DNA from: Botryllus schlosseri
Taxonomy: Eukaryota
Direction: 5' to 3'
Assembly: GCA_051294905.1 (NCBI GenBank)
Contig: CM119371.1
Location: forward strand, 2,544,001-2,608,000
Length of the DNA stretch: 64,000 nt
Within the stretch, counting starts at the first letter, position 1, and every line of letters begins with the position of its first letter. Shown piece by piece: positions 32,901-62,800 of the stretch. Below the pieces are notes generated by a model that had not been told where the DNA came from, did no database searches, and worked only from the letters and a program-made list of their open reading frames with translations. Position numbers and translations under genes: made by a program.

Positions 32901-33289
32901 TAGAACAATCAATCAGCTGATTTCATTCCATGTTTTGACTCAGAGCCATTCATGCACGTGAGACATTAGCTCCACCACGCGGAAGAGCGAAAGGCGTTAA
33001 ATCCATAACATTATGCAGTTCGATATTACATTTCCTTCATAGCCTATTTGGTTTTGTCATCTCTCCTAATTTTATTCTCCTGTACATGACGTTATCATCG
33101 GATAAGTCGATAAAGCGAACACTCGAATAGGGTAGTAATATAAAAATTTAAAAGAACTATACTGCTAGAAAAGTTAGGAGCCATCGATGCATGACATCCT
33201 TGGAAGCCGAGGAGACCGCTTGCCTAGTAACCACCAAGCCCCGAACTACTGCCATCTCCGGCTAAGCAAATTTGCGTTGTCACCATGTT

Positions 33290-33501
33290 ACAGTTGCATT
33301 GTGGGGGATAGGCTGGACGACTTAGTACAGGCGCTTATGGAAAAACGTCCAGTTTTAAAATATATTTGATTCGTATTGGGTTTGTAGTATTTTATACGAA
33401 TGGAGCTTTGAATGAATAATCATCGTAACATTCAGGATTTGTTTCAGCCCAATATCTCGTGTTTATATCTGTGTTATCTGTGTATTTCGACATGTCGAAG
33501 A
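33290..33501 (+). repeat. Left 212-bp inverted repeat of element 1; includes the transposase ATG
   Basis: Reverse complement of 42422-42633 with 5 mismatches counted by eye. Confidence 0.95.
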
Positions 33502-36500
33502 CATCTCGTTTTGGTGGTAGCGTTTGTTGCGCCTATGGGTGCAGTAAAAGGCAGAAAAAGATATCCACGGAGTCATATATGAGAAGTAATAGCGATGGTA
33601 GTAGCGATAAAGAGTCTTTGGTAAAGCGTCGGCATCCAAGAACATTTCACCGGTGAGTGAATGGCAGAATATGCAGGGCAGCAAGACTATCTTTGAAGAA
33701 TCAGTTTCTATTTTTAATATTTCCTGACCATCACAGTTAATCAATGTCCAGATAAGCCACAGCATTAATGAATAGGCCATGTTAAAGTGTCATTATACCA
33801 GAACATTTTGTCACAAGTATAATGATGTTGGTATGATCAGAGCAGACTATATCAGCAGTCTCAGCACCATGTCAGTTCATCAGTATACCTGTAATAGCAT
33901 GACCAGCCAGGTCACTGTTTGTATTCTGTATGGGCAGTTCAGCCAATAACTAGCTTAGTACTCAATCCTTGCTTAAAATTGTCGTGAAGGTTGGAGGTAG
34001 GACTAGAAGGAAAGGTATAATTGAGGGCCACACGGTTTTGTCCAGCATAGTTGAGTAATAACTCTATATTTCTGGTGCCAGATGCTCACACTAAAGTTCA
34101 AATTGCTAATTCCGTGGTCGAGTTCATTATAGCTTTGTGCGTGCGAGACGTTCGATTTGTCTCGTAAGATGTTTTTTTTAGGTTAACCTTTGGCTTTGGA
34201 TTTAAAAGGTTACCTAATAGTTTATCCTTCTGGGGTAGAAAGTAACAGATATATCTAAATCAAACAAGATAATTTCACATATGTTCCTGCTACTTTTATC
34301 ATCGTTCATAACAAAGAATGGTCAATTTGGTGTGCTTCGTATCATAGAATTACTTGTGAACTGATACAATGTTCTCTACAACGCAGCTTTCCTACCAATG
34401 ATTCCCTGAAAGAAAGATGGATAGAATGTATTAGAAGAAAAGACTGGGAGCCAGCAAGATCGTCGGTCATCTGTTCTGATCATTTTTCAGAAAGTGATAT
34501 TTACCGTGTTGGCGGGAGAATTCGTTTAAGGACGAATGCGGTGCCGACAAGATTTCGGAATTTTCCAAAATATATGAGGCCAAAGGTACGGTAGACACTA
34601 GACAGTGACTATATATTTATGAAGTTTGAGTTCCAATTACTTACCTTTATTTTAGCCCTAGTTAACATAAAATTCACAAATTTCAGGCTTCAAACAACCG
34701 ACGAGTGAGACCTTCTGCAGTTCCAGATAAGAAACGGCATTATGAAGCACAAACCGCTGAACCTGAAGTAGTTCTTCACGACCACAGCTACTGTGCGCAC
34801 ACGTCTCCTCGAAAAGTCGTTCAACAGCAACGCCGTAGGGTCGCAGAAATTAAAAAGAGGTTGGTTGCAGCCACAATGAGAACATACCGTCTGCAAAAAA
34901 AAGTGAAATCTCTGGATGAGGTCATTGCATCTCTTAAGAAGAACAATTTGATAAGCGATTCGTGTGTGGAGGTAATGTCACAAAAATTCAGTGGTCTACC
35001 AAGTGAGCTCTTGCAACGTATGAAGCTACAAGCTGGTGGAAGAGGAGTCAAATACTCTAAGGAACTGCAATCATTTGCAATGACGCTTCAGTATTATTCC
35101 ACTAAGGCATACAATTTTGTGCGTCAGAATTTTCAACTTGCTCTTCCCCATCCAAGTGTGATAAGACGCTGGTATGGAAAACTTCCCGCTGAGCCTGGCT
35201 TTACTAGTATTGCCTTTTCTGCCATCAGAGGAAAAGTAGAGGCATCAGCAAATCCTGTAATATGCTCCATAATGATGGATGAAATGTCGATCCGCAAACA
35301 GGTTTTTTGGGATGGAAAACGATACCGAGGATATGTAGACATGGGTACTGACTGTGAGGATGATGATTCTTTGCCTCTTGCTAAAGATGCATTAGTTTTT
35401 ATGGCTGTTTGTATCAATTCATCCTGGAAGATCCCGCTTGGATACTTTTTCATTAATGGTTTAACAGGATCGGAACGAGCAAATTTGGTCAGAATTTGCA
35501 TAAACAAGCTTAATGAAGTGGGTGCAACTGTTGCTTCATTGACATGTGACGGACCTTCATGTCACTTCGCAATGCTTTCTGCATTAGGGGCAAATATATC
35601 CTCCAGGAACATTGTGTCTAGTTTTACTAATCCGTATTTACCCGATCATCAAATCCAAGTAATTCTAGATCCTTGTCACATGCTCAAACTAATCAGAAAC
35701 TGCCTAGCAGAATGGGGTACTTTGCAAGATGGTAGTGGGCACCAAGGGCGTAGTCAGAAAAAATATTTGGGGGGGGCGAAAATTTCGATGACGTAAAAGA
35801 ACCCCCCCCCCCCCCTTGAAGATAAGGGGAAAATAGGTGAAAAAACGATGGTCTTGGGGCCTTATTGGATGATTACCACAACATCCGGGGCGATCGTTAT
35901 ACATATATTCCACTCACACAGATAAAGTGATGTTATAATAATACGATTGTGGAAAACTGTGGCGGCAACACTTTCGCGCGAAGCGCGCAGATTTTTCAAG
36001 GTTAATGAATGAAATTGGTTCATTATATTGTTACTTGCATATTGCAAATACGTTTCCATTATCAGATTTACTGGTAAGGCTGATAGAAGCGGTGTCATCA
36101 AATATTCAGGGACACTCAATTATGCAACTGGAACTGTATGTTCATGTTCATACAGAGCCGTAACAGCACTTCGTCAGCCCCCCCCCAAACGTTGGGCCCC
36201 CATATGACGATAAGCCGAACTTCTGGGGGGCTTCGCCCCCCTCAGGCTATCCGCTGTGTACCGCAACTTGTCATCTAGTTTTGGGGCCGTTCACTGAGGC
36301 AGCTTTTCTCGCCTAGTCGCGCCAAGCGCGAAAAGTTTCCATTATTCATGATTGAATCGGTCAATATGATCGGGAATTGCATATATATTGCTATCAATTT
36401 TTATCCTCTCTCTGCTCACGTAATCATACTTACAGGTAGAACAGAGTGAGGTGTCTTGGAAACTGTAGGGCCCGTTGGTATGACTCCATAACATGATGTT

Positions 36501-39472
36501 ATTTCGTGACCTCCTATCTGCTATATCAGAAAATATAGAATCGCCCAACCGTAGGCTACTAAACTAAAAGACGCGCACGATTTCAAATTGGTATTTCTTC
36601 ACCGCATATAATTTTTCCCTGCGCGATGGTATTTGTCTCGTGAGGTTCAGATTGTCAAGACAGGAACATTCGGCGCCAGTCATTTAGGCGCCTGTGGACA
36701 ATTAAACATGTATGTATTTTGTATATGTAACGACGTTTTCGGTCAGCATGAGGGCAGTACTTTTCGGCCAAGGTTTTCTCGCTGCTGATCGTTCTGGTAC
36801 ACTTCTTGGAGTCGCATGTTACATGGCCTAAAACTTTATATGTCTTGCTAAATCGTGGCGCTGTTATGGCCAACGCCGACATGCCCATTTCTATAAGTGT
36901 TGCGTATTTTTTCTTGGGGGAAGAGTACCCAAAAATCGAGATATTTGGCAAATTGAAATCGCGTAAAGCGCGAAAATTTTTGAAAAATTTGCATAAATTT
37001 TCAAAAAAATACTCTATAATTTATGTTAATTTACGAAAAAAAATTCCCCTTGGGCTCAAGCTTGCCCCCCAATTGGGGGATTTAGGGTGCGACAGTTGCG
37101 GTCCTGCACACGGAACGACCATTTATGAGTTGCTAGAGGGTATGAGCCGGGTGGGACAGTTTTCATTTATTGCTGTAGTTACTTCATGACTTGCGGAGAA
37201 AGCTGTCACAACTCAAAAGATCGCCCACACTCAAGGTCGTAGCCAGAAAAACGTTTTTTTATGGGGGAGGGGCAAATTTTCTATGAGTTTAGGGGAGCTC
37301 CCCGTGGGGACACCTCATGGGACCGTACATCTTTCCATGGACAATTTCATCACTACCCATTATACATGCGATTCTTAGACGCACACACACACCCTATGAA
37401 AGGTTCCATTTCCAAGTATAGCTTGTATTAGGAGATCGATTGACGGACGAGCCCAAATCGCTGACATTAAGTGATGGAAAATCAGTGTGAATTTCGAGCC
37501 TAGTCGCGCGGAGTGCAAAATTGTTTTGAATAAATGAATGAATTTGATCAATAATATCGGAGCATGTATATGAGCAAGTGGTGTTCATTTTGAATAATTA
37601 CTTACTTGAAGCAGGGTTATTTCGTAACCTGTGGTAAAGATTGACGCTACTTTAAAGATTGGAATCGCTGATACATATCAGACCAAATTAAAAAAATCCT
37701 TGGATCAAACTCGTGCGATTTCAAATTAGCACTTTTTAACAACGGGAGGTGGCGATATTTTTCTGTGCCAGTCGTATTTATGTCTTCGTCCGTCCCGGAA
37801 CGGAAATTGCCGGAACTAATAGTCCCCCCATACTGAACTGAAACCCCTAGACTCAATCAACCCAACGACCTCGGGCTATTCAAGTGTATCTACTGGTACT
37901 GTTGTATTCTCATAATTGAGAATGCAGCTAAACTGAATTATGATTATTTTCGGAATTTTTTTTCGGTAAACCGATAAAATCAAGACATCTATGGACTCTA
38001 AATCGCGCGAAGCGCGAAAAAAAAGTTTTAGGTTGCATTCATCTGCCCAAAAATGCTCTAATATTTGTTGATTTTACGAAAATTTTCCAAAAATTTGGGG
38101 GGGGCGATCGCCCCTTTCGCCCCTCCCTGGCTACGCCAATGGTGGGCACCAAATTTCTTGGAATTTCATCATTTTACTGCAAAAACTCCAGGCATCAGAA
38201 GGCCTGAGACTTGGCAATAAGCTGAAGAAGTGTCATGTGGAATGGCAGCAGCAAAAGATGAAAGTGAATTTGGCTGCTCAAACAATCAGCAGCAGTGTTG
38301 CTGATGCAATCGAATATTGTGATAAAAACCTCAAAATGAGATGCTTTCGGGGTAGTGCTGCTACCGTCAAGTTTTTGCGCAGTTTTGATCGCCTTTTCGA
38401 CATACTCAATTCGAGAAACCCGTTTGCAAAAGGGTATAAATCTCCTTTAAAGGAATCAAACCAGCACTTGTGGCGTCCATTCATGTATGAAATGATGGAT
38501 TATATTGCCAAATTACAGGACCCCTCGGGAAAGCCTATTGTTGAATCTCGCAGGAAAACAGGATTCCTTGGATTTCTGGCTTGCATAAAGAGCACGCTGA
38601 GCCTTTTTGATCGCCTAGTGGCTACAAAAATGGTGAGGTACTTGCTGATGTACAAGTTCAGTCAAGATCATCTTGAGCTATTTTTTTGTGCTGTCCGTAA
38701 AGCAGGAGGCTTCAACAATAATCCTACTTGTCTGCAATTTACTGCTGCGTATAAAAGGTTATTGATGAAGTTGGGAATCCGTGCATCATCAGGAAATTGC
38801 GAAGAAAGAGACGCAACCGCCATGTTGGACCTCTTGGATGATTTCAGGATTCAAGAAAGTGGACTCTCTCTTTCTTCTGCGACCTTGATCAGAAAATACG
38901 ACTTGGAAGCGAAACGACCTATGCAAGATGAGCATGACTACTCCGATGTTCCTAAAATAACAACTTTGTCTGAGTACAAAAGTCAAGCCATATCATATAT
39001 TGCTGGCTATGTTGCCAAGTCAGTGACTGAGCGATGTCTTTGCCCAACGTGTAAAGGGTCGCTCATGGTGGCTTCGGCAACCAGTGGCAGTTTCCTGCAA
39101 TTCAAGAACAGGGGTGGCCTAACTAAACCATCTACTGGTGTTATTGCAATATGTGAGGAGGCTGAAAAATGCTTCCAGCGAATGATTCATGTTACTTCTG
39201 GAAAGTTACCTCATTGCAAGGGCTTGATCAACGCCTTTGCCACTGCTATTCTGTCGAACATGTCTGGTAAATCACCAGCTTTCCCAGAACTTGAAGACCA
39301 TATTTATGACACCTCAGTTGGTGACGATCATATAATCACTCTGACAAAAGACATCGCCAAGACCTATTGCAAGATTAAATTCAAACATCTAGGAGTAGAA
39401 TACAATCAAAGGACATCAGACAAGAACGTCCGCAGAGTGTTAACAAAGCTGATTCTCTTCAAAAATCAGTAA
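33492..39472 (+). pseudogene. THAP-domain P-element transposase, ~912 aa reconstructed: exons 33492-33652, 34387-34585, 34687-35742 plus 38150-39472; interrupted by a hAT insertion
   Basis: THAP CCAYGC..FHRFP..W..W..ICSDHF..AVPT across GT-AG introns; MDEMSIRK, TCDG, DPCHMLKLIRN, KMKVNLAAQ, FDILNS, SQDHLELFF, YIAGYV; frame continuous once the insertion and one TSD copy are removed. Confidence 0.92.
35743..38141. mobile_element. Non-autonomous hAT-type element (2.4 kb) inserted in the P transposase
   Basis: Perfect 8-bp TSD gtgggcac at 35735-35742 and 38142-38149; TIR caagggcgtagtcag vs reverse complement cattggcgtagccag. Confidence 0.92.
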
Positions 39473-39699
39473 CTGCCACAGTTGGTCAGTCAACTTTCAG
39501 GTTGCTTGTTTACAATTTGCTGATGATCTTCGCCAGCTCGAGGGCAACGACACGGTCAAAGTTCCCGCTTCATTAAAGATTCAGGAAATGTGTCGTTGTT
39601 TACCCAGACTGGCACCCCCGTGAAAGGGGGGGTCACATTGTCAGTGAACCGCTGTGCTAGAGGATCTTCTGAACCTGACGCTATGATATTCAAACCAGA

Positions 39700-40200
39700 G
39701 TCAACGGTCCAGTGGGATCGAATGACGTTCCCGGATATGAAAAGGTTTCAGCGTTGGCCGACTGCCTGCTAACTCACAGAGATTGTACTTACTGTTTGAG
39801 TGAAGCGGTGGCAGCTCATATCATAACATTATGGAACGACTTTCTCCCATACGACAAGCAATTGAGCAATCACATTCAGGACCGATCTATAGGAAAGGAA
39901 ATCCAGGCGGCCGATTCAAATCGGCCAAGTCGCCTGGCGTGGTTGCTACACAGTAGTGCATCGACACTTAGGGAGTAAGGACATGGCGCACACGCGAAGA
40001 AAAAGGAACGATCCTTTCATCCGCATACGGCTTTGTAAGTTATTGTGGTTCAGTAACCCTCAGCGGTTTTATTTGATATTTTTGTAATTAAAAGAGTCGC
40101 AATTTGGACATGCTACACAATCAATGGTCGGATCGACGTACCGCAACTTGGATGTGAGGATTCCTGAAGCCGGTGAGTTCGCTCCATGGCCATCGTATTT
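39700..40200 (+). pseudogene. Decayed cargo gene fragment inside element 1
   Basis: VPGYEKVSALADCLL...IITLWNDFLPYDK and, after a frameshift, GRFKSAKSPGVVAT; recalled similarity to the C-terminus of TE-associated DUF6729-containing proteins, unverified. Confidence 0.45.
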
Positions 40201-42421
40201 ATTGATTCTACTCAAGCAGAGGTAGTTTAAAAACTTGAAGAAGTATCGCAAGTGAGCAAAACCACTTTAAGTAGAAGTACTTCTTAACTGACCACCTCTG
40301 GTCATTGCTAGGGCTTATAGTTGTGTTTCCAGAGTCGTAATGTCATGATAATATAAATTATGTGGATAGCTCAAATCTTTATGTTTAAAAAAAATCCAAG
40401 AGTTGCTTCTATCTATAGAACATATTTAGGTGTTTTTTCGATCATGCGTATTTTATAGGCTTCCATTGAAATATATTCTCTACTAGCACAGATTGGGCAT
40501 TAATGTTATTTCATTAAGCTGGTTCTGTTACGGCGATTGACACCTTTGCGCCATATGTTCAATAATGAGGCTCAAGGTGATTCAATTGTTGAATTACCTT
40601 CACCCTTCCGTTGAAAAAGAAAATGACAATTCGTTACCGCTTTCCGATGTTGTCGTTAAGAAGGTGGATAACAATTTTGTTACATCTGTCATCCTTTTAT
40701 CATTAGGCTGCATTCAGTGTCCAATACCTTTAGCGGTTAACTGTCAATATATAATTTATATGATATGTGCTCTGGTACACAGATGTAACTATCGCTTTAT
40801 TCCATACTTGCTCGTGGCTGTTTTCTTTTCCATTCAAAGGTTCTGGAATCGACCATCGTTAAGCTGTAAAGCCAACCCTGCGTCGCCAGAGAGAATATTT
40901 ACATACCCAACTCTTACTTCAAACCCACGGAAGACACCGGCTAACCCACTGAATGAGGTGAGGCCACTTTCTTCGTATGCCGTAGAATTTTCATTATTGT
41001 AATTCTGTACTCACAGTTTTTGGTATCTTTACAGATAATAAGAAAACAAAGAAGGGAGCAAGTCTAGCCAACACATACTTCAAACCCGTAAAAGACACCG
41101 GCTAACACACTTTCTTTACTATTTTATACGCATTTTGGTATAAAAACGTTGTCGTGACATCAAGGTATGTCGATCAATGTGTCTTCAAGTGAACAATTTC
41201 TCATATGTTAGTTCATTTATCTTGAACAGTGCCCCAAAACGACGTCGTCGTCGTAGGACCCGTAGTGGGGTGGCCTTCAATGTGACTGTGCCTGTGCCGC
41301 GTAAGAAGAGAAGAATTCCATTAAATTGGAACTAAGATCAGAATCGGTACGTTTATTATACCTCGTTCGCAGATATTAAGCCCTAACTTATCCCACATTT
41401 GACTTTCAGATCACCGTTAATTACGCCGAAGGCGACGTAAAGTCGATAACAATTAATTTATTTCTGTTTTTATTTTTTATGTTGTTATTTTAATAGAAAA
41501 ATTCGTTTCTCATAACCGAAGCTGGTGTTTCTGAAAACGAGAGTTCAGCATTTTGGTACGAGACAGTACAGCGCGGTATTTCGTGTGACGAGGCAGTACA
41601 GTTCACATCTCCAGTTAGTTTTGAATCCAAACTAATTTCTGGTTTCATGAAAGTGCAAAACGAGCCAAGCTTCATGTACACACGTATATGGGTAGCTATA
41701 GGTGTAATTATGATAAAATACATGTACGCCGTTTAGATTGTATCTTGTGCCGATTTGATTCGATAAAATTAATATTTATTATGAACTCCCAAAGTGCACA
41801 GATTGCTGTTACAACCAACATAGCCCCAATTTCACTGTGAATTGGGCAATTCTAGCTACATCTGAATAAGGACCCATGCATTTCTTGTTTCTCTCATTCA
41901 ATGAACTCATTCAGTCACTTCTACAGAAATCACTACCCCATCGCCACACATAGCAGACATATCTTTACTTTCTCTTTTTTGGATTTATTTAAATACGCTG
42001 AACCAATAAATACGTAGAATAACCACAATGGCATTCAGTTGATTTCAGCAGTGCCTTTTGATATGTCCCATGATGCTGAATTTTCTCCATCAGCAATATT
42101 CACAGCTGGCAGTTATAGCATTCACATCAGCTCCATTGAAGTATGAAGATTTTGAATCCAGGATAGGTAATTCCGAGGCACGCTCCGATAATAACTTCAA
42201 GCTGACAATCGTAGATGCTTTTACTTCCTATAGATACATATATCTGAAAGATAACTGAACTGGCATTAAACATCTTTTGGCAGCTTGGTTATTTCTGTAC
42301 ACGTAAAATATGCTGGATACAACGAGTAAAGCAATCTACATCAGGAATATAACCACAAAAAAATACATACGATGACACATAGACAACCTTATTTTACCAC
42401 GAACAGTCGAAACCACTTATA

Positions 42422-42633
42422 TCTTCGACATGTCGAAATACACCGATAACACAGATATAAACACGAGATATTGGGCTGAAACAAATCCTGAATGTTACGA
42501 TGATTATTCATTCAAAGCTCCATTCGTATAAAATACTACAAACCCAATACGAATCAAATATATTTTAGAACTGGACGTTTTTCCATAAGCTCCTGCACTA
42601 AATCGTCCAGCCTATCCCCCACAATGCAACTGT
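42422..42633 (-). repeat. Right 212-bp inverted repeat of element 1
   Basis: Reverse complement of 33290-33501. Confidence 0.95.
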
Positions 42634-43067
42634 TTCTAGTGACAACGTAAATATCGCGAGTAGCGCACTCCAGTGTTTATATAGCTCAGTGGTAACCACT
42701 GTATATATCGTTTTGCCATGGAAAACTGAATGCGATAGAGAGAGAGAGAGAGAATTTTATTCGGTCCATGAACATTGATGATACAAAGATAGATAAATAC
42801 AAAGCAAAGTATATATAATTCAGAACCAGGCTGTAGCGAAGGGATCGGGAGATCATCAAGTCAGCTACAGCCTGAAAGGATGGTTGTAATATGAAACTTA
42901 TCACAGAATATAACACATTTGCTAGCAAAAAATATAACATATTCGCAATGTATCAAAAACAGATGAAAAAGTAAGTGGGATAACAGTAGGTAACCTAGAT
43001 AGACGAGATAACACAATGGCACTGGCTATAGGAACACAAACTAGGCAAAAATATGCTTATTGACAAT

Positions 43068-46000: not shown

Positions 46001-46227
46001 AATTCCCTTGTTAGTTGCATATTGTCAAGTGATGAAAATGGTAATTCCGAGTTTAGGCATTGGCAGCAATAATAATACTCATCAGTAGTTCCGATATGAT
46101 TGAATTGCGGTGTTGTCAGTTTGGTGCACTTCAAATGAGTCCAGTAGTCACAGATATCACAGCAAATGCAAGGCTGATTTGACTTGCATGGTTTGTGGCA
46201 AGAGCCACATGGAAATAAGACGGGCAT
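43068..46227 (-). pseudogene. LINE ORF2: PHD finger, APE endonuclease, reverse transcriptase; several frameshifts
   Basis: CGSC..CDICDYWTHLKC..CCQC; HANVRSL, SETRL, IYRHP, GDFNID, SDHLP; GPDGIP, GVPQGSVLGP, LFADD, YLGIIID; split over four ORFs. Confidence 0.92.
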
Positions 46228-46266
46228 TTTCTATCTATTGATCAAGGCTGAATTAGTGGTTACAGT

Positions 46267-50800: not shown

Positions 50801-53800
50801 AAGGATCCAAAGTTCTTCGATGAATACAAAGTTTTCATGTCTGACATGATCACAAATGGATATGCCGAGAAGGTTCACAATGATGGGCCAGTTGGTAAAA
50901 CCTGGTACCTGAGCCATCACGGTGTGTATCACCCTGAAAAGAAGACTATCCGCGTTGTTTTCGATGCATCTGCAAAATTCAATAACCTGGCGTTAAACGA
51001 CCTTCTGTTGCAAGGGCCAGACCTAACAAACAACCTTGTTGGTGTTTTATCGCGCTTTCGCAGAAATGAAGTTGCGATCCAAGGTGACATTCGATCAATG
51101 TTCCACCAGGTTAAGGTTGATGAATCTGATAGAGACCTGTTACGCTTCCTGTGGTGGAAGGATAATGATCCAAACCAACAACTCGAAACGTACCGAATGA
51201 CTGTATTTTTATTTGGGACTGTGAGCAGCCCTAGCTGTGCCAACTTTGCTCTACGAACTGTCGCTGAAGACAACAAAAATGCCTATGACATTGATGTCAT
51301 AAATGCAGTTCAAAGGAACTTCTATGTTGATGATTTTCTTGATTCCTGTGAGGATACTCCTGCTGCAATTCGTCGTGTGGAAGATGTCAGTTCTCTGCTA
51401 AGCAAAGGTGGGTTTGAACTGACAAAATGGGCAAGCAATTGCAGAGAAGTACTGGCAGCAATACCAGAATCAAACAGAGCCAAAAACCTGAAAAATATTG
51501 ACTTGTTGACTGATGAGCTACCGATGGAGAAGACATTGGGGCTTGCCTGGAATATAGAAGATGATTCGTGGTGCTTCCGCGTCAAAGAAAAACACAAACC
51601 TTGTACCAGAAGAGGAATTCTGAGTATCGTGAACTCAATTTTTGATCCGCTGGGAATGGCTCAAACTATAGTGCAACCAATGAAGGTATTGATGCAGCAC
51701 TTATGCAAAAATAACTACAATTGGGATGACCCGTTACCTGAAGAAGCCAGAAAGATTTGGTGCGACTGGTTATCTCAACTACCGATGCTTGAAAACTTTA
51801 CGATTCCAAGATGTTTCAAACCGTCAAAGTTTGGACAGGTGACAAGAATCGAACTTCACCACTTCTCAGATGCCTCTGAGTTGTGCTATGGTGCGGTATC
51901 TTATCTGAGATATGTGAATGATGCAGGTGATATTCACTGTTCTTTTGTTTGTGGGAAAACAAGACTCGCCCCCATTAAAGGTTCTACCATTCCGAGAATG
52001 GAGTTGTCCGCTGCAACAATATCTGCCAGTAATAACAAATTTCTGCTAAAAGAGCTGGACCTTCCTATTGACGATTCATACTTCTGGACTGACAGCACAA
52101 CTGTTTTGCGATATCTCACAAACAAAGACAAAGCTTTCAAAACCTTTGTTGCGAACAGAATCAATATGATAAAAGAGTCTTCAGAATTATCGGACTGGAG
52201 GTATGTACCTTCAAAACAAAACCCTGCTGATATTGCTTCTCGGGGCCAGACTGTTTCTGAATTCTTGACTTGCGACATGTGGAAATTTGGTCCAGAATTC
52301 TTGTGGAAAGATTCTTCGGAGTGGCCTCAACAACCAACATTTCTAGAGGAGTTGTCTTGTGATGACCCTGAAATCAAAAATCCAAACAAATTGTGTTTTC
52401 TTACAATTACCACTCCAAATTCTGTTCTTGATGAACTCATCTCCAAGATCTCAAGCTGGACTCGACTGAAAAGGGTGCTGGCATGGGTCTTGCGCTTCAA
52501 AAATAATTTTCTTGCCAAAGCGAGAAACAAACAACCAAATGCAAAGCTGACAAAAAAGGCATTGACTTTAACCGAAGTTAAAACTGCTGAAGAAATGCTT
52601 GTACGTCATGAGCAAACAAAGCACTTCTCTGAAGAAATAGAAAGACTGAAGACTGATGAACAAATCAAAAGATCTAGCCCGATCTACAAATTGCTACCAT
52701 TTCTGGATAATGGGACCCTCCGGGTTGGAGGCAGAAATCAAAATGCTCCCATTGGTTACGACTCAAAACATCCGATAATCATCCCTAAAAAGAGTCCGAT
52801 TGCAGAATTGGTCATTCGAGATGCTCATGTTTCATGTGGCCACAGTGGCCGGGAATATGTTATCGCACAAGTCAGAGAAAGATTTTGGTTTGTCACAATC
52901 AATTCCAAAGTACGATCCATTCTGAAAAATTGTGTCTCATGTAGGAAACGTCAACGGAAACCAGAATCTCAACAAATGTCTGATCTACCATCTGATAGAT
53001 TAACTCCGAATGATCCGCCGTTCCACGCAGTTGCGGTTGACTGTTTTGGTCCGTTTTTGGTAAAGCGTGGTAGATCTGAGTTAAAACGATATGGTGTTTT
53101 GTTCACTTGCCTAACCACTCGCGCTGTCCATATTGAAATTGCGAATAGTTTGGACACTGATTCTTTCATTATGGCACTGCGTCGCTGCATTGCACGCCGT
53201 GGACAAATCAGTTTGATACGGTCAGATAATGGCAGCAACTTCACATCTGGTGAGAAGGAGTTGAGACAAAACATTTTAACTTGGAATCAAACAAAAATAC
53301 AAGATTTTTTGGTGCAAAAACAAATAACTTGGTTGTTTCAGACCCCTTGTGCATCTAATCATGGTGGTGTATTTGAAAGACAAATTCGCACAGTGCGAAA
53401 GATTTTGGGTGCTCTGTGTGATGAACAAATGTTGTCTGATGAATCTCTATTAACATTGATGTGCGAATGTGAATCAATTATGAATAATCGCCCTATTTCA
53501 ACTGTGTCTAGTGATCCACATGATTTGACCCCAATAACCCCTAACAGTCTGTTGTTGTTGAAAGATAAACCCATGCTACCACCTGGTGTGTTCAATGTCA
53601 AAGATGTTTACTCTCGAAAAAGATGGAGACAAGTCCAGTACTTGGCTGATCTTTTTTGGACAAGGTGGAAGAAACAATACCTTCCACTACTTCAGATTCG
53701 CCAAAAATGGAATGAAAAGAAAAGAAATATCACTGTAGGTGATGTTGTGCTTGTGTTGGATCAAAACCTACCGCGTAACATGTGGTTGCTAGGTCGTGTG

Positions 53801-53920
53801 ATTGAAACCCTACCTGACAAGTCTGGGTTGGTGAGAAGCGTGAGGGTCTTTACCAAAACGAATATTTTGAAACGACCCATAAACAAATTGGTGCTTCTCT
53901 GTGAAGCTCGTGACTGTTGA
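47855..53920 (+). CDS. BEL/Pao gag-pol polyprotein, single frame of 2022 codons with one in-frame TAA at 48386
   Basis: Gag FSGDPIEF, Zn knuckles CFMC..H..C and CFKC..GH..C, protease ALIDNAS, RT YVDD, RNase H HHFSDASE, integrase H..GH..CVSC, AVDCFG, SDNG, FERQI; order PR-RT-RH-IN. Confidence 0.93.
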
Positions 53921-54052
53921 GAGCTGAAATTTGTTACAGTTTTTTGAGTATTGTAACCTTTCGTTTCTTTGTGTTCTCATTGTGAATTTGCAGTTGTGTA
54001 AAAATTGCCAAACTTGCATAAATTCAAATTTTCAATTTTTAAAGGGCCAGGA

Positions 54053-54510
54053 TGAAGTCGCGATTTCGGACTTCAAGAGCCATAAACATCACGGTTCAAT
54101 AAACCTTGTATGACCTTTGTGACGTAACTGTTATAGAGTTGATTGCCGTTCAGTTTCGCCCTCGTTGCCTGCTTTGTATCAGTTGCTAATATTTTGAGCT
54201 ATCAATCTTATTCAATCGTATTTACATCGCAATTTTTATAGATCCTAAATTAATTATTATGAATATTACGATTCGAAATTTGTAACTGTCCTCAAGGAAA
54301 CACCGTCAAGTAAGTATATATTGATTTATCCGGTACTAAACAATTAGTGTTCATTCTCTGTGTATTAATGCTTTCAGAAAACCGTTTTTCGTCTGTGTAA
54401 AAGAAAATCCAACGAAGCAGGCAGAAACGCGTCATCTTGGGGTGTTGGATAGGACAGTTATATATCCATTGTGTATACGTGGAAGATTCCACCCCTCTTT
54501 CGCGGTTACA
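54053..54510 (+). repeat. Putative 3' LTR (458 bp), with no second copy in the window
   Basis: Starts TG right after the purine tract and ends CA; imperfect terminal inverted repeat tgaagtcgcg / cgcggttaca; internal gtaagt...tttcag intron-like segment. Confidence 0.65.
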
Positions 54511-54552
54511 TTACATTGTCTCAAAGATTGGAACGGACGCTGTTTGTGGACA

Positions 54553-56691
54553 TTATTTGTAAATAAAGTCCATGCGCCTATCCTTTGCCACAAAAATTTT
54601 CGTGACTTCGTTGTAAAAGTCCTCCTTGTTCTCCTTCAGTTTCAAAAGTCTCTTCGCCTCAATTGAGATGAGGGCCAAAGAGGAAAGTCGCCCTGAATCG
54701 GTCCTATTTCGACTGTATGTCTTGAGTCTTTTTAACGCAGAGAACGACCTTTCCACTGACGCTGTAGTAGCTGGCACAGTTAGCACCAGTTGGAGCAACT
54801 TTGTGGCCTCTGGAACCGTCTGAAGCAGATCTTTCTGGGTTAAAAATCTCAGAAGCTCTCCTGGAGATTTGCACTCATTCCTCACTGTTTGCGAGCTGTA
54901 CAGTCCGATGAGGTCAGTCTTTAGTCTAACAAAGTCAAAAAACTTTGCATATTTTGACAGGCTCTGTAGTTTGGTGTCATCAAAATGTCGTGACATCTCA
55001 TTGAATTTTGTACAGTCGACCAAACCGAGGAAAGCTAGCTCCCCAAAATGATCGAACCTAGCTTTCATTTGAACAAGGATGTTATCCAGAATGCTGCAGA
55101 ACATTCGTTTTCTCTCATCTCTGACCGACTGATTTCTTCCGCTTTCGGTTAGTTCAAGTCTACTGCATTTCTGTTCAAATCGCTGGTACTTCATGTTAAA
55201 CTCTCTTCTCATGCGTTCAACAGCTTCGATGGTGTCCTGGATTCGCGCACAACAATAGCCAATGTCCATGACCTTGTTTTGCAACACTCTAAAAAGCGCA
55301 TCGGTTTCACAAAATACGTCTTCATATGCCATAATTAAAAAGCATGTTGATGCTTTTGTCAGCCAACGATAATATCCAGCGGCCATCATTTGAGTTTCAT
55401 TATCCCAATTGTCAGGATTTTCAATAATGATGCGAAATACGGCACGCAGATCAGATTGGTACATGCTTGTTGTCTGTAGCAGGCGGGAATTTGAACTCCA
55501 TCTTGTGGACGCTGCTCTTGGTAAGCGCCGTTTCACAACATCATCCAATAAACGGGTACGCTTCGAGGATTTGCTAAAAAATGACCCTAGTCCCTCAAGT
55601 GTTTTAAAAAACGCTCTGCTCTCAGGCATACATTTTGCTGAATGCTGGAGCACAAGGTTAAGCTTGTGTGCATAGCAGTGTGTGAACATGGCCTCTGGTA
55701 CTTTTTCTTTAATTTTAGCTTGCACTCCATTAAGCTCTGATGCCATCACAGCAGCCCCGTCATATGTCTGAGCTACTAGCTTTTCGACACAGTTGTATTT
55801 TTCCAATGCACCCAAGACATACGAAGCTACCGCAGAGGCTCGTCTGTCCTCACTTACGTCATCAAATCCCAAAAAGGCCTCCTTGACTTCACAGTCTAAT
55901 CCCATTTTTTCTACATAGCGGAAAATAACAGAGATCTGTGCTTTATTTGTGACATCGGTTGTCTCGTCTACCTCTACAGCGACAAATTTGGCAGCATTAA
56001 TCTCACTTTTTATATCATTACGAATTACATCACCGACTGCCTCAATTAAATCGTTCTGCGTTCGATTTGACAAGCCAGAAAACACACTGGATGTCTCCAA
56101 ATGTCTTGCCAACCTTTCATCTTTCTCGGCAAAAGCATGTAACAGCTCTACATAATTGCCGCGATTAGTCGAGCTTGCCTTCTCATTGTTGCCTCGAAAT
56201 GCTAGCTCCTGTTTACCTAAGAAGCAGGTTGCATTAATCAGGTCTTTTAAAATATCTCGGTTTTCCTTTACTTTTGCATTGTGGATGCTAATATCGAGTG
56301 TCCGCTGTTCGTTCAAAGCCGTATCGATCCTGGAATTTCCGAAATATTTTGCAGAAATCGTGCTTTGAATATGGGTTGTCGATCTCTCATGTCTGCTGAG
56401 GCTTCGTGGCAAATTTTTCAAGTCACAATATCCCGTGGTAGTCCAGACATTGTTAGAAGTTGAAAACAAAAGGCAGGGAAAGCAGTAAAGACGATTTTTT
56501 AAAGCGCAGCCACACAGCCATTCTTTTCGGGTATACCAGTCCTGTTGAAAAGTGCGCATTTTCTTGTTTCCAATATTTTGAAGCAAACCTTTTAGTTGCG
56601 GCGTTGGTCTTCCGTTGCTGATCACTTCTATTTTTGCGCGAAACTTCAGTTTTGAGAAATCCCGAAGCTTGGATATATAATCCTCTTCCAT
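54553..56691 (-). CDS. hAT transposase (ZMYM1/ZNF862-like: TTF-type Zn finger, DUF4371-like region, hATC dimerisation domain), 712 aa, uninterrupted
   Basis: YCFPC..HERSTTH, LAFRG, VDETTD, YDGAAVM, HCYAHKLNL, TRW, PATTASVERSFSALKRLKT. Confidence 0.95.
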   Translation of the reverse strand: MEEDYISKLRDFSKLKFRAKIEVISNGRPTPQLKGLLQNIGNKKMRTFQQDWYTRKEWLCGCALKNRLYCFPCLLFSTSNNVWTTTGYCDLKNLPRSLSRHERSTTHIQSTISAKYFGNSRIDTALNEQRTLDISIHNAKVKENRDILKDLINATCFLGKQELAFRGNNEKASSTNRGNYVELLHAFAEKDERLARHLETSSVFSGLSNRTQNDLIEAVGDVIRNDIKSEINAAKFVAVEVDETTDVTNKAQISVIFRYVEKMGLDCEVKEAFLGFDDVSEDRRASAVASYVLGALEKYNCVEKLVAQTYDGAAVMASELNGVQAKIKEKVPEAMFTHCYAHKLNLVLQHSAKCMPESRAFFKTLEGLGSFFSKSSKRTRLLDDVVKRRLPRAASTRWSSNSRLLQTTSMYQSDLRAVFRIIIENPDNWDNETQMMAAGYYRWLTKASTCFLIMAYEDVFCETDALFRVLQNKVMDIGYCCARIQDTIEAVERMRREFNMKYQRFEQKCSRLELTESGRNQSVRDERKRMFCSILDNILVQMKARFDHFGELAFLGLVDCTKFNEMSRHFDDTKLQSLSKYAKFFDFVRLKTDLIGLYSSQTVRNECKSPGELLRFLTQKDLLQTVPEATKLLQLVLTVPATTASVERSFSALKRLKTYSRNRTDSGRLSSLALISIEAKRLLKLKENKEDFYNEVTKIFVAKDRRMDFIYK

Positions 56692-58718
56692 TTTGGGAGC
56701 CCCAAGCGCGCTGTTTAATCACTGCGGTTCTGTATTTGATCAGCAAAACTAAATATGTCACTCACTATTATCACACCTTTAGAAATGATTAGACATCAGC
56801 CAGCCTGTGACAAATCAGGGTGATATTCATGATTGGGGATAGAGATGTCATTAGAATCGACCTGGTGTAAATAACTATTGCAGTCGAAAACACTATAAAC
56901 GACCACAAACAACGACAACGCAGGCTATGTAAGTACATGAATCACATATCACAATTTAAGGTTATACAGCTATTGAATTTGAACACAGCATAAAGGCCAC
57001 AAAACACGACAATAGGCTATGCTAGTAGCTATCACATACCACAACGTATCTATGGATGGAAAATAGGCCTACATAAACCTAACATATATATTTGTCGTCG
57101 CTACTACCGGTATGCAATTCCTACAAGACTGTTGGATTGGATTCCGAAATCGATAGAACGTTTCACTTTGCTGCAAGTGTCCGATAGTTAGCGAATAGTG
57201 CATGAGCTAGATTCGTTTGTGCCTCCTCTGGCCATTGTTTTTCTGCGTTGGCATCGTCTGTAATAAAGCCGACTGTCACCTTCTTTGACGATTTTTGGGG
57301 GGTTCTGGTGCTCTGACACTGCTAATATTTGGATTTTCGGAATCAGTGCGACGATAGCATTTGATTGATACCAATTATTATGAATTCCGAGCTATTTATG
57401 ATGAATTGCATTGTTCCAAGTAAGGCACGACCCGCCCGTGCCTCACCCGTGCCTCACCTCTCCTTTCGCGCTGTATTTTTGAATAATAATGAGGCAAATT
57501 GATGATGTTGGGTGAAAAAATGTTCAGATTTAGTTATTTATGAACATCGACGGAAAATATCAATAATCATCGAGGGTTTTCATAATTTCACTCACTCACT
57601 CTAACGACAGGTGAGGCACTGCCTCCCCTGCCTCATTGGACCGCACGTCACTGATTCATTGTGTTTTCAAGAGCCGAAATATGTTATCGATATTTCCGGC
57701 CAGAAGATATTATATAGCGGCAGTTGATTTTCTGGGAAACGTCGGCTGAAGTTGGGACCGATACCTTGCCCCAGTTTGCGTCAAAAGTCAACATCATTTT
57801 CTTCCCCACCAATGAAAGAGCAAGCGTCCAGAAACGCATGCGATAAAAAAATCTTTTTATGTTGACCGATTAAAAAGGGACCTATCTCATGCTCAAGGTA
57901 GGTCAAATTTATAATCAAGTTGAAGACGGATTTGTGGTTCAATCACTGTTTAATAGGTGGCTGGGTAGCCTGTAATATGAGAAGAAAGGAAAGCTTTATA
58001 TCTTGATTTGGAGGAAGCTGGTCAGTGGTCGTATTAAACCAAAAATTGGGTCAGTTTTATATTTACTATTTTAAGGCCAGCAGGCATCTACAAATAAATA
58101 AACTACAAAAAATTTAAGCTACTGTCAAATGCAAGTTTATAAATTACAAACAGCTCCCACGCTTTTTGTAATGCTGTAGGCTACATGGTTGAAGCGTATT
58201 ATAGATTCTATGCCGATTTATGAAGGCCTATATATTTATCAAAAATGTGACAAGTTTATGCCAACTCTGATCACTTTTGTCCTATCATTACAGGATGGGG
58301 TTTGCCGTAGAAAATTGAAGGGTCAAATGCCGGTTCCGCCTCCACGCCTCCACCGCCCCGCCTCCACTAAGAATGTCCGGTTTTGACTATATCTATGAAG
58401 GACCCATTGTCAAGAAGAAGAAAGTGTTGTAATTCATAGTCATTTCACCACAAAGTGAGGTAGTTAAGAATTCTTCCATTTAAAATTGTGATAGGCATTT
58501 CTATTTTCTCGCATACCACTGCATAACTGTACTGGTATTCAGACCAAGGATTACAGCAATGACCACAATTGATGATCGTCATGGATGCTGGCCATTCAAT
58601 TTGATATTATTTTTCCCCCTTTACCCCATATTGATATAGCTGTAATCGCCGCAGTCTAACTCTTAATGTATATCTTGGTCAGTCTGTCAATTTCCTACGA
58701 GGTTTCTTGACATGTAGG

Positions 58719-59129
58719 TAGGGTTACATTACCATACGTCCTCCATTTTCGGGTTTTTGAAAATGTCCCAGAGGATGCCTAAATATCCTCTTTTTTTGGC
58801 AATTTATCCTCCTTTACAGCTTTTGAAGCTAAGATAAATGACAGTGTCTGAGGTAAAATGGGCATTAATGACGCTAAGAAAGAGCTAATACGGAGTCTCG
58901 AGCGGAAGTGACGACCTTTTTTAGTCAACACCAGTAATTTTAAGTAAAAAGTGCGTAAATCGGTAGTCAAACGAAAGTGATGACCATTTTTTAACCATTT
59001 TTTAAATAAAAATCGCCAAATTTTACAGCAAAAAATTGCAAAATCAGCTGTTTTCAGTATTGATCAACTAACTGTACATATTTGGTCAAAGTGTCATCCT
59101 TCCCGATTTCAAAATATATGGTAACCATA
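58719..59129. mobile_element. hAT Blackjack-type MITE
   Basis: Ends tagggttac / gtaaccata; perfect TSD catgtagg. Confidence 0.85.
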
Positions 59130-59229
59130 CATGTAGGAATATCTGTGCTGTACTGTTACTAGTAGCAATCAAGGTACAGCTAGAGACAAACAATTTCACT
59201 CAGGTCAAGATTATTGCATCACAGATGAT

Positions 59230-60519
59230 TACTGCCTGTGCCCAGCCACACAACGCCACGGACCGTGTAAGCAGATCGCAAAATCCAATGATGAAGAACC
59301 TCCAAGACTGTCACCTAACCCATTTGCTGGATATGAAAGGGTCATGGCGACGAGGAGATCTTTCATTCTAACTGGATTCTTACTTTGATCTCCCTGATGT
59401 TTCATGCACTTCCAGTTGTGCCAGGGTAGCTCTGCATAACTGAATACCATCTAGCAAATGGCTGATAAATATATACAATACCACACATGACTGTTTGGAG
59501 TTTATAATTTATTCAACAGATGAGACATTGAAGGATTGCATGCCTAAACATAAGTAGCAGTCAACAATGCCGCAAGACTGGTGGTGATATAGGCTACTGT
59601 TGTATACCTCAACTGTGGGAGGCATGGCCATCAAACTGTCCTTCTTGTAATAACATTTCTTGACGACACTGCATATTTGCAATGTGATGTCAATCTTTAG
59701 CATCGCAGAGAGACAGTAAGCAGTGTGGATAGGGCATGTTAGTCGAATCTGAAAATATACCAGATTATAAACTATTTAAAGACACTGGCGCTGAATTACA
59801 ATTTGGCTATTGTAAGGCTAGTGTTTGTCCAGATTCACTAAAACTACATTGTATGCTTCATGCCACCAATTTTAAAGTTGCAAACATTGTGAAACCATAG
59901 CAATTTACAACGTAGCTACGTTGTAAATTGCTATGGTGAAACACTGCGGTATCATTTATGATCAAGGGTTTCCATTCAAATCACCACATATACCCTGGCT
60001 TCCGTTGTTTGATTCCCTTCATTTCTGAAATTTACTAACTAGCTTCTTCGAGAACAAGTTTCTTGAGACTCTCGCGGGCCGCACAAAACGGCGTTGCGGG
60101 CCGCAACCGTAGTTTGCCCACCCCTGGTCTAACTACATGGTCATTGAATTTTCGAATTGCCTTTCTCAAAAGCAAAATCAGCCATATATTCTCAAATATC
60201 ACTCTCCCTTTCAGAAATAATGGCAGACACTAATGACTCAGGCTGGGGCGGCTTTATTCCAGTAGGCTCTATATATATCCTTTCCACGAGCTCAAGTAAA
60301 AATTTGGCAGAGAGAAGCCTGTCGTTTGATTTTGTGAATAATATCGTATCATTTGCCACTAACGTGCGAGGCCATAATTTCAATAGACATGATCTCACTG
60401 TATAAATGAGTAAGCCGTGTACCTGATGAAATCGAAATAATAATGATGAAAACACGGATCCCAATTACTATTTTCCCAACAGTATTATAACCAGGGACGG
60501 CACAACTGTTTGCAGGCAT
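59230..60519 (-). pseudogene. Decayed THAP-led gene of the right arm of element 2, possibly THAP-SWIM-YqaJ type
   Basis: MPANSCAVPGYNT at the TIR end; FSLP..W and VCHYF remnants; downstream CGIVDCYLCLG, GDQSKNP..MTLS and LGDSLGG..CLHG. Confidence 0.4.
59896..59935. mobile_element. 40-bp perfect palindrome with a 7-bp TSD; probable P/Galileo-type excision footprint
   Basis: gtgaaac|catagcaatttacaacgtag ctacgttgtaaattgctatg|gtgaaac. Confidence 0.8.
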
Positions 60520-62800
60520 CTCCAATATTCGATAGCTGTAAATAAGCACCAATACCGATCTCCAAAACATATAGATATAAAGTCAAATGCTACAACCGAT
60601 CGGCAAACACAACAGAAACTTTCTCAATGCTGACTTTGCCAAGGTTTTGTAACTAGCGCGACCTTGCACCATGCTCACTATCATCCGACCGTAAATGATT
60701 GACAGGCCATGCACTTACCGTTCTATCCCATTCAGTTTTCCATGGTTTTGCACTTGCCCTATGCCAGGGGCGGGCAACTTGTCCGGTCAGTGAGCCGCAG
60801 ATGGGAAAATTAGGCACTTGGCGGGCCAGATTTCAGAATATATACAATTATATATTATACCTTAATCGCGTATTTATCCACCGCTACAAGGAATCAATTT
60901 AGTTTATTACCAGCTATCCGACAGTCGTCGAGCATGTCCGCATTCAAATCGAAATACAAGCAATTTCTCCTAAATCAATACTAGCCAGTCTTCGGGATTA
61001 CCGGACCACGACCTAACATCGACCTCGCCCTTCGCCACTTGCCACCTCATTTTGTCGCTTGCGTCTTATATTCTCTGCATTACTTTTCAGTCAGTGTCCA
61101 TGCCCCTTATTTACTTCGCCTAGGCTAAGGTTGGTGTCTGATCTTAATGGCTGCTTCAAGTTATTTCGACACCTTCCTATCTTCGCATTGTATCGCGGTC
61201 TTGTGATGTTTTAAAACGATGAAAATATTAATAAACCTGATTGATTGATGTAAACTTCAAGTTTAAAGCATAGAGATCAAAAAGAGTATTTCATAAATTT
61301 ATTTACAACAGCTATTGAAGTCAATTAGACATCTATGGTCATTCAATACTAGTTTTTTGAACTCTGATTGCATGTCATAAGCAAAAACCCTTAGTGAAGA
61401 CTGCTAATGTTTGTGGCAGTGTTGAGAATAAGTCACTGCCTTCGAATCACAAATCATCTCGAATCATTGTACATTTTGACTCGAGTTAAGTCAATTCACT
61501 GGATTTTCATAGGTGACAAGGGTCAAGTCAAGTCACTCGATTTTTGGAGGAGACCCGAGTCAAGTCAAGTCAAGTCACGAGTCAAGTAACTAGTCAAGTA
61601 AAGTTGAAATTTCTAAGTAGGCCTACTAGACATGATTCAAATTCATTACTATGGGGCGATTTTTTTTCAAAATTTTTTCAAAATTTTGTTTTACACCATG
61701 AGTTTGATTTATTTTGCTGTTCTTGTGTAAATCACACTAACATGTAACTTAGTTACTCCCGCCATTCACCGGCATCAAAAATCCAGTGTTTTTCGGCTGT
61801 ATCTCGTTTTATGTTCACTACAGGGAAACCTTTCTTCTTAAGAATGATAGAAACATGTTTTGACAGCTTTCATGACCCTACGACTAGTGGTTGTTGAGAT
61901 GGCAATTTCACCACCTCTCACGCAGACATTGGGGGGATGCCGGCTGGAAAATGGAGGCAATCACTTAAAACCAATTTTGATTGAAGTTTCATGTCATTTT
62001 TCCGGACTTGAAAACCCCCCTTTTTCGATTTGAAAAAAAAAGTCATTTTCACTCCACCCTAGAACGCATGCCTATTGACATTCCAACATTTAACGACAAA
62101 TGACGATACATATCCCCACATCTTCACCAAGTCTACCTACCTCTCATTCGAATTAAGTTCTGACACATGAAAAAATGGTCTGGAATTTATCCTGATACAA
62201 CCTTTTGTCAACTTGTACGCATTAGCGTAAAATACATGGTCTCTCCATTTCCCGATAACCCAAATGAAATGCAAGGCTCAAATAACGAATTAATATTTAT
62301 TTCAAATCAATTCTATACATTTCATAACATGAAAACGCAGCCCAATACAACATAAAATCATTGAAATTTCAGCCACTACTCGCAAAGTCTAAGATGCAGA
62401 TACTCATTAGGAGTCATTAACAATACTCTATATGAGTTGTGGATAATGTCAGTATAATTGCAAATTATTGACAATGGACAGTGAGAGTAATTTACAGAAT
62501 GTCAAGCAGCAAATCATACCATCTCAGCAAAAAGGGCATATTGAATCACATCCATAAGATTATCTGAAATTTCGATTGTTATGGATTAACAATTTGCCTC
62601 TTTTTCTGTTAACTATGATGTATAAAGTCATTTAGAATAAATTGATCACATATCAATAATAAACGAGGTCATCAAGAGAAATGATCCCATTATATTATGC
62701 TCGAAGCATCTAGAAACAACAAGGTAGCAGAAAAATTGGTCATTGGTCATAGAAGCAAGAAAAATTGTTGACTCGAAGTACAGCGACCGTCATTCTACAG

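Follow-up and report, generated by a model that had tools for sequence, protein, structure and literature searches.

A canonical P element next to a decayed member of a P-superfamily lineage in Botryllus schlosseri that appears to encode the C-terminal domain of its transposase as a separate, convergent gene

The window analysed here, a stretch of 64,000 nucleotides from Botryllus schlosseri (GCA_051294905.1, contig CM119371.1, positions 2,544,001 to 2,608,000 of the forward strand), holds two neighbouring transposons, element 1 and element 2, in a region that is a nest of transposable elements (TEs). An original prediction, made from the sequence alone, placed them 25 bp apart, with unrelated ends and target site duplications (TSDs) of 8 and 7 bp; the mapped ends at 42691 and 42717 confirm this (gap 42692-42716), and the two are independent insertions of unrelated P-superfamily transposons. 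Their assignment to that superfamily was also correct, as Pfam core domains are found both in element 1 and in the clade of element 2. We consider it quite probable that element 1 is a canonical one-gene P element, and that element 2 is a dead member of a clade whose transposase is split between two convergent genes, here called gene B and gene A. The features of element 1 are as follows, in window coordinates.

33227..33234, unoriented: left 8-bp TSD of element 1, GTAACCAC, paired with the right copy.
33235..42691, plus strand: element 1, P-superfamily transposon; 9457 bp, made up of a 7.05-kb canonical element and a 2.4-kb nested insert.
33270..33504, plus strand: left subterminal inverted repeat, spanning the 5' untranslated region (UTR) or promoter region and the first 13 nt of the coding sequence.
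33492..33653, plus strand: transposase exon 1 region; the ATG at 33492 reads MSKTSRFGGSVCCAYGCSKRQKK, with the first Cys pair of THAP, in frame with the open reading frame (ORF) 33429-33653.
34259..34591, plus strand: THAP domain exon (PF05485, E 7.9e-12).
34666..35745, plus strand: main exon part 1, with the P-type helix-turn-helix (HTH), the N-terminal part of RNase H (RNase H-N) and the start of the GTP-binding domain (GBD).
35746..38141, unoriented: nested 2396-bp insertion in the transposase exon, missing from the intact copies L054 and L055.
38142..39469, plus strand: main exon part 2, with the remaining GBD, the C-terminal part of RNase H (RNase H-C) and THAP9_C / Tnp_P_element_C, the fused C-terminal domain (CTD).
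39470..42418, unoriented: 3-kb 3' region without a recognisable gene on either strand.
42419..42652, minus strand: right subterminal inverted repeat, with a copy of the ATG at 42431-42429.
42692..42699, unoriented: right 8-bp TSD of element 1, GTAACCAC.

Element 1 has the coding traits of the P superfamily, namely an N-terminal THAP domain, the core domains and a CTD fused to the core, and its Pfam domains follow the canonical order on one strand. The stretch 34666-35793 matches the P-type HTH, RNase H-N and the first 22 positions of the GBD, and 38072-39469 the rest of the GBD, RNase H-C and THAP9_C (core matches PF12017 at 4.2e-25, PF21787 at 2.2e-48, PF21788 at 1.8e-37 and PF21789 at 5.5e-22); the fused CTD (PF22824, 1.2e-8) lies in the same exon as the core. 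This exon is unbroken over 799 aa in four genomic copies. The intact copies L054 and L055 measure 7.05-7.2 kb and are 98-99.6% identical to the window copy, while many other copies are deletion derivatives of ~3.5 kb. With at least 40 copies at 98-100% identity, element 1 is a young canonical one-gene P element that is probably still active. The window copy is inactivated by the 2.4-kb nested insertion, in which a Pfam search gave no match; it is flanked by a repeat of ~9-11 bp (GTGGGCACC...) and has G-runs near both ends.

The limits of element 1 come from searches with each end, in which 40 copies were scored out of 304 candidates on the left and 381 on the right. All 40 scored left-end matches start at the first query base, 33235, homology beginning at 33224-33235 in the 12 copies compared with their flanks, and the right limit falls at 42691, give or take a few bases, in the 40 copies scored. 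Perfect 8-bp TSDs were found in all six left/right end pairs examined (GTTGCGAG, GTCGGCAC, GTACTAAA, GTCTGAAC and GTAATAAG, with GTAACCAC in the window copy), and the flanking sequences suggest a GTnnnnAC target preference. An inverted-repeat scan found 215 nt at 97% (33290-33504 / 42419-42633), which BLAST lengthens to 33270-33504 / 42419-42652. The repeat is subterminal, because the outer 35-39 bp of the two ends (33235-33269 against 42653-42691) do not align; element 1 is thus an asymmetric-end P element, with the TSD of the superfamily and without terminal inverted repeats (TIRs) at its tips.

As predicted, the left repeat ends just after the transposase ATG, which lies at 33492, 13 nt ahead of the inner edge at 33504. 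Its copy in the right repeat reads ATG TCG AAG ATA TAA, that is, MSKI followed by a stop. Downstream of the transposase stop, the 3 kb that lead up to the right repeat gave neither a Pfam match on either strand nor a match to the gene A profile described below. Since this region is geneless and the right-repeat ATG runs into a stop, element 1 is a one-gene P element whose second ATG is passive, and the claim of a two-gene design therefore fails for element 1. Its repeat would have arisen by copying the ATG, together with the 5' UTR or promoter region ahead of it, to the 3' end, where they drive no gene.

Element 2 is far more disrupted, and its parts are listed below.

42710..42716, unoriented: left 7-bp TSD of element 2, GTTTTGC.
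42717..60744, unoriented: element 2, read as a decayed non-autonomous member of a two-gene P-like clade; ~3.5 kb of its own DNA, the rest nested insertions.
42717..42739, plus strand: outer 23 bp of the left TIR, 22/23 identical to the right end.
42740..47145, minus strand: long interspersed nuclear element (LINE) within the left TIR, with APE endonuclease and reverse transcriptase ORFs, frameshifted; boundaries approximate.
47146..47530, plus strand: remaining left (gene B) end; the TIR, which holds a degenerate THAP start, continues to ~47387 and is followed by other element sequence as far as the nested insert.
47531..57653, unoriented: nested insert(s), 10.1 kb, with a BEL/Pao gag-pol ORF and a hAT-like ORF.
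57655..57911, plus strand: what is left of THAP exon 2 of gene B, frameshifted and interrupted by a stop (tblastn E 2e-17).
60195..60464, minus strand: gene A (CTD-like) remnant, ~residues 92-161 of 309 (profile E 1.2e-7; search match at 69% identity).
60481..60744, minus strand: right (gene A end) TIR, with a THAP start copy, ATG 60519, MPANSCAVPGYNT.
60745..60751, unoriented: right 7-bp TSD of element 2, GTTTTGC.

The termini of element 2 are CATGGAAAAC... at 42717 and 60744, the right end reading CATGGAAAACTGAATGGGATAGAACGGTAAG... inward from 60744. Its TIR pieces are 78-89% complementary, and the left TIR picks up again at ~47144, past the LINE. L028, a relative that is complete at 3.47 kb, matches 60745-57654 first and continues at 47530-47144; because the alignment jumps from 57654 to 47530, the DNA at 47531-57653 is nested and foreign. 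Of 13 family copies in which both ends are present, nine have a perfect 7-bp TSD, three have one with one or two mismatches and one has a TSD of 8 bp, so that the clade keeps the 7- or 8-bp TSD of the superfamily. The predicted THAP starts in both TIRs are present, at ATG 47353 (with a 4-nt deletion) and ATG 60519, and both are degenerate. Further THAP remnants had been proposed on both strands: the one on the plus strand is real (57655-57911), whereas minus-strand THAP sequence is confined to 60472-60528, and the stretch 60195-60464 belongs to gene A. To judge from the sequence, both genes are dead in the window copy.

The organisation of the clade is seen in relatives of element 2. In a sister subfamily (L031-L036, L053 and the composites E2a and E2b), whose ends are ~80% identical to the window's right end, ORFs head inward from both TIRs: on the gene B side, pieces of THAP, HTH, RNase H-N and GBD follow in order on one strand, and gene A is a 309-aa ORF that starts MASKVSD and matches Tnp_P_element_C weakly (E 0.008-0.03). 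Two lineages were dissected beside that of element 2, c10 (L056 and L059), with TIRs of 424 bp at 94% identity, TSD ACTAAAC and tips CATAGTG, and c17 (L057 and L058), with TIRs of 257 bp at 96% identity. In L053, c17 and c10, THAP, HTH, RNase H-N, GBD and RNase H-C are ordered on one strand and a CTD-like ORF lies on the other; the Pfam scores for c17 (E-values: THAP 7.8e-4, HTH 4.8e-5, RNase H-N 7.1e-11, GBD 1.7e-4, RNase H-C 0.036; L053 is similar) are low because exons were scanned singly. Gene A (MANIPEYSVEW... in c10, MANATEEWY... in c17) starts 60-130 bp to the inside of one TIR and the THAP gene (MSGSNCCVPGCH... and MPSTHCTVPHCN..., respectively) 110-150 bp to the inside of the other, and across the two-gene clade both genes are enclosed between TIRs with 7-bp TSDs. 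The gene A proteins of the three lineages share 26-32% identity, with a conserved Met-Ala start and EEW motif. The clade of element 2 has the core of the P superfamily (THAP, HTH, RNase H/GBD) and departs from its single transposase polypeptide with a CTD, which is found only on the opposite strand.

This arrangement recurs in the genome. We counted 30 gene A matches at 26-33% identity and 52 RNase H-N matches at no more than 51% identity, leaving out the matches of the element 2 family itself. An RNase H-N partner lies within 20 kb of 24 of these 30 distant gene A matches (six have none), and 23 of the 24 pairs, copies of the same families included, are convergent, the remaining one being on the same strand; in 25 of the 30, the matched stretch has no stop. 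The convergent two-gene design that had been proposed for both elements thus holds for the lineage of element 2. A tblastn search with the element 1 protein gave almost nothing on element 2 copies at E 0.01, because the two proteins are too divergent, a difficulty that was met with single-exon Pfam scans and a relaxed tblastn. A 526-aa ORF of the 10-kb copy E2a was considered as a missing part of gene B and rejected: it sits in a nested insertion that is missing from E2c and has, by eye, retroelement gag/protease-like motifs.

What gene A encodes emerges from comparison with the transposase of element 1. When the 799-aa exon was compared with c17 by tblastn, aa 244-342, 506-541 and 512-590 matched the minus strand, and aa 631-784 matched the plus strand, inside gene A. 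An hhalign comparison of the same exon with a three-sequence profile pairs gene A 131-251 with 628-753 (E 0.0016). An exhaustive HMMER search with the gene A alignment returned 161 public proteins at E <=1e-3; the 150 matches listed are all of 83-442 aa, and many of ~290-330 aa span the whole profile. Among 73 aligned family members, 18 match Tnp_P_element_C (best E 1e-5), and 16 of the 73, which are distant members, have C2H2 zinc fingers. The resulting 73-sequence profile matches the fused CTD of element 1 at E 3e-10, and in c10, c17 and E2c it matches gene A only, so gene B has no CTD of its own. Three other searches yielded nothing usable: a word-indexed homologue search with the three-sequence alignment found nothing, a PDB sequence search with the gene A profile gave 0 matches, and an ESM Atlas search gave no usable match.

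A first structure prediction for gene A, from three sequences, was unusable (pLDDT 57.6) and was redone with the 73 sequences. The predicted structure keeps the CTD fold and its basic tail, and adds a well-folded N-terminal region of ~130 aa for which no counterpart was found. In Drosophila P, according to excerpts from PMC7776569, the CTD is all-helical, is connected with the RNase H domain through a linker that is flexible and disordered, contacts both transposon and target DNA, and ends in basic residues. These comparisons lead us to regard gene A as, in all likelihood, the C-terminal domain of the transposase, separately encoded, and the split point of the two-gene clade would be the linker ahead of the CTD. 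No THAP domain was found in gene A with Pfam, and the second gene is thus not the THAP accessory gene of the original prediction.

RNA evidence comes from a c10 copy, on which four runs were mapped (L056:1900-8001): X23, raw RNA reads from an unstranded library, and X1-X3, which we took to be RNA-derived, a kind that their spliced contigs support. Eight joints of 57-73 nt occur over gene B in the X2 and X3 contigs; their plus-strand ends are CT..AC, which makes them GT..AG introns of a minus-strand gene, and three of them are also seen in one or two raw X23 reads. Reads and contigs run over the gene A region without joints: X23 has a depth of ~1-4 between the 2308-2511 bin and 3327, and X1 has contigs at 2372-2816 and 2818-3499. 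The TIR on this side spans 1946-2369; its bin 2104-2307 has nearly no X23 reads, and RNA over gene A sets in at ~L056:2308-2372, which suggests that transcription of gene A starts at the inner edge of the TIR. A gap at 3532-3735 separates the ends of the gene A and gene B transcripts, and no contig in these runs joins the two genes. Given a spliced gene B, an unspliced gene A and the gap between them, these are two separate convergent transcription units. A 312-nt joint was rejected as an intron of gene B, since it is an abundant repeat inserted in this c10 copy; this insert (L056:5010-5321) has 9 nt common to both junctions, reaches a depth of ~3700 in X1 contigs and is probably a transcribed repeat resembling a miniature inverted-repeat transposable element.

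The extent of the TIRs varies within the clade. In c10 and c17 they end 60-150 bp ahead of both ATGs, in the window's subfamily they run for about 264-285 bp to just past the THAP start, and in the 80% subfamily (E2c) they reach 519 bp and carry the first 54 gene A codons at both ends, the true THAP start of E2c (MPTNRCAVPGCNTSRKNSN...) lying in a 135-bp duplicate just inside the TIR. At the gene A end of this last subfamily, the THAP-start copy is a 15-codon ORF ending in TAA; a GT donor comes after it, and splicing to an AG acceptor ~95 nt downstream would fuse it in frame with gene A. Because the TIRs of c10 and c17 stop short of both ATGs, the THAP start does not define the two-gene design, and the notion that start codon duplication was the design itself has to be given up. 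On the best reading of the sequences compared, the two-gene design is real, and the duplicated THAP start of element 2 is a side effect superimposed on it as the TIRs extended. The same process of TIR recruitment would then have brought THAP start codons to the gene A end and, in the 80% subfamily, the 54 gene A codons to the gene B end.

Some further observations concern the surroundings of both elements. A second pair of neighbours, one copy of element 1 and one of the element 2 family, lies 1.5 kb apart in L025 (C8:26415000-26424999, at 959-4913 and 6431-9822), and these are independent insertions, since their TSDs differ. Two such neighbourhoods among ~40 scored element 1 copies are far above chance in 495 Mb, which hints at shared target regions or TE nests. 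The LINE in the left TIR of element 2 has an ORF1 with a baculovirus-FP-like domain and a (GA)n run at its 3' junction. The BEL/Pao-type gag-pol ORF (48389-53917, plus strand) is uninterrupted over 1843 aa, with Peptidase_A17, RVT_1, rve, DUF1759 and DUF5641; no pair of long terminal repeats was found for it within 47300-57800. The hAT-like ORF (54556-56718, minus strand) is intact, with 721 aa, DUF4371 and a hAT dimerisation domain, and a different hAT-like ORF, of 695 aa, lies in another copy of the element 2 family (L035:4362-6446, minus strand). Passenger genes of the family were ruled out, as the two ORFs share no DNA homology and are therefore independent nested insertions. Genome-wide, there are at least 150 matches to the P-type RNase H-N domain from many distinct lineages, as well as several P-type open frames of 700-850 aa, so that P-superfamily diversity is unusually rich.

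Comparison with known systems separates the two elements. Element 1 resembles Drosophila P in its domain order (THAP, HTH, RNase H split by a GBD, CTD), its 8-bp TSD, its palindromic target bias and its many internally deleted copies. The TIR of Drosophila P is 31 bp long; element 1, unlike it, has tips without an inverted repeat, a subterminal repeat of 215-235 bp that includes the 5' UTR and ATG, and a length of 7 kb with 3 kb of unexplained 3' sequence. Galileo has a 7-bp TSD, and the clade of element 2 shares with it this trait and its long TIRs (~264, 257, 424 and 519 bp in the clade), a likeness of TIR and TSD features. Excerpts from PMC4168063 describe how Galileo TIRs grow, like those of the element 2 clade, by recruiting internal, even coding, sequence (from 69 bp to >500 bp of ORF), and PMC3688188 reports multiple THAP-binding sites in long Galileo TIRs. 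The recruited ORF piece is the 3' end in Galileo and the 5' ends of both genes in the clade of element 2, and, unlike this clade, Galileo has one transposase of ~905 aa with its own C-terminal part.

The closest functional analogue of the layout, as we infer it, is MuDR of maize, from the Mutator superfamily, in which, according to excerpts from PMC3440606, mudrA (the transposase) and mudrB are convergent, with promoters and starts in near-identical TIRs of ~215 bp. MuDR differs in that its superfamily and transposase are unrelated, and mudrB is not a piece of transposase, whereas gene A would be the transposase's own CTD. PIF/Harbinger elements likewise combine cut-and-paste transposition with a transposase and a second element-encoded protein; there the second protein is a Myb/SANT-like DNA-binding protein and not a detached transposase domain, and TSD and catalytic family differ. 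For Drosophila P, the excerpts from PMC7776569 describe a 66-kDa protein, made when IVS3 is retained, that stops short of the C-terminal third; this protein has no activity and acts as a repressor, and whether the transposase is active depends on the C-terminal part being supplied. Gene B stops at about the same point as this repressor. The switch is alternative splicing of a single gene in Drosophila, and here it would be a separate gene by the other TIR. No account of P-like elements with a second ORF or a split transposase turned up in a search of the full-text literature, which left Repbase and Dfam outside its scope, and the lineage of element 2 seems to represent a hitherto undescribed variant within the P superfamily.

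In the explanation we favour, element 2 would be a dead copy that has lost internal sequence, and it would belong to a clade whose members have CATG-type tips, 7-bp TSDs and TIRs of 260-520 bp. Gene B would read inward from one TIR and encode THAP, HTH and the RNase H/GTP-binding core, and gene A would read inward from the other and encode the N-terminal helical region of ~130 aa and the CTD. Since both genes start at or just inside the long TIRs, the repeat most plausibly gives each its promoter, identical TIRs thus supplying the same promoter to both. The A and B products may assemble into the active transposase, and gene B alone would resemble the inactive 66-kDa form of Drosophila. A more far-reaching proposal, in which the whole clade has a two-subunit transposase with twin TIR promoters, the CTD supply acts as an on/off switch and element 1 represents the pre-adapted state, we advance tentatively, as an idea that could fall either way and that we lean slightly against.

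Several points weigh against the explanation we favour. The 23 convergent pairs are not independent events, because they include copies of the same families, and only three lineages are dissected. The spliced c10 copy of gene B keeps frame breaks and the 312-bp insert, and no complete intact gene B could be assembled, which leaves the present autonomy of the family unproven. The start of gene A transcription is suggested by coverage, and not by a mapped promoter or transcription start; X23 is unstranded and thin (depth 1-4), and the stretch mapped excludes the TIR at the gene B end. The gene A model matches 6P5A weakly in Foldseek (E 0.47, probability 0.80), single gene A sequences match Tnp_P_element_C below the Pfam cut-off (E 0.008-0.04), and the contact between the A and B products is something that we infer. 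Finally, the split architecture may already be recorded in Repbase or Dfam.

The rival that survives best, though unlikely, is that gene A is a real gene of the element that acts as a regulator (a repressor, chaperone or targeting factor) and not as an obligatory subunit, with gene B or a transposase in trans doing the chemistry. The extra region of ~130 aa, predicted to be well folded and without a counterpart, would suit such a role, as would the zinc fingers of 16 of the 73 gene A members and the truncated P proteins that act as repressors in Drosophila (excerpts from PMC7776569). The same excerpts, however, describe the protein without its C-terminal third as inactive and the CTD as contacting transposon and target DNA; moreover, gene B has no CTD, and gene A is predicted to keep the CTD fold and the basic tail. 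We find it harder still to believe that gene A is debris, the 3' part of an ordinary P transposase inverted or duplicated in one defective lineage with passive TIRs. Both genes are indeed broken in the window and in the 3.5-kb subfamily, and in Galileo P-type TIRs passively recruit coding pieces; yet proteins at 26-32% identity keep open frames of ~300 aa and a conserved start, all but one of the 24 pairs are convergent, RNA covers gene A, gene B lacks a CTD of its own, and public gene predictions hold 161 stand-alone homologues (83-442 aa among the 150 listed). Least credible of all is that the repeat duplicates promoter and start codon so that each of the two elements can express a THAP accessory gene convergent with its first gene: THAP starts do stand at both ends of element 2, and splicing could join one in frame to gene A in the 80% subfamily, but gene A has no THAP domain, the unspliced start at its end is a 15-codon ORF closed by TAA, the A end lacks a THAP start in c10 and c17, and in element 1 the second ATG gives MSKI and a stop in a family whose intact copies have one gene.

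Few eukaryotic transposons have been studied as thoroughly as P elements, and to our knowledge the P transposase has so far been treated as a single polypeptide. A natural lineage with a detached CTD, as the explanation we favour has it, would offer a ready test of the role of this domain and of its action in trans, and it would show how long, promoter-carrying TIRs can turn a one-gene element into a two-gene one. It would also explain an orphan family of ~300-aa proteins in public gene predictions, and it bears on annotation, as pipelines that expect P elements to have one ORF will list gene B as a truncated transposase and leave gene A as a gene of unknown kind. If the more far-reaching proposal were true, the clade would do with separate genes what Drosophila P does with its IVS3 splicing switch, and would have arrived at the MuDR layout by convergence, and element 1, with a promoter-bearing 3' repeat and no gene behind it, would show the pre-adapted state.

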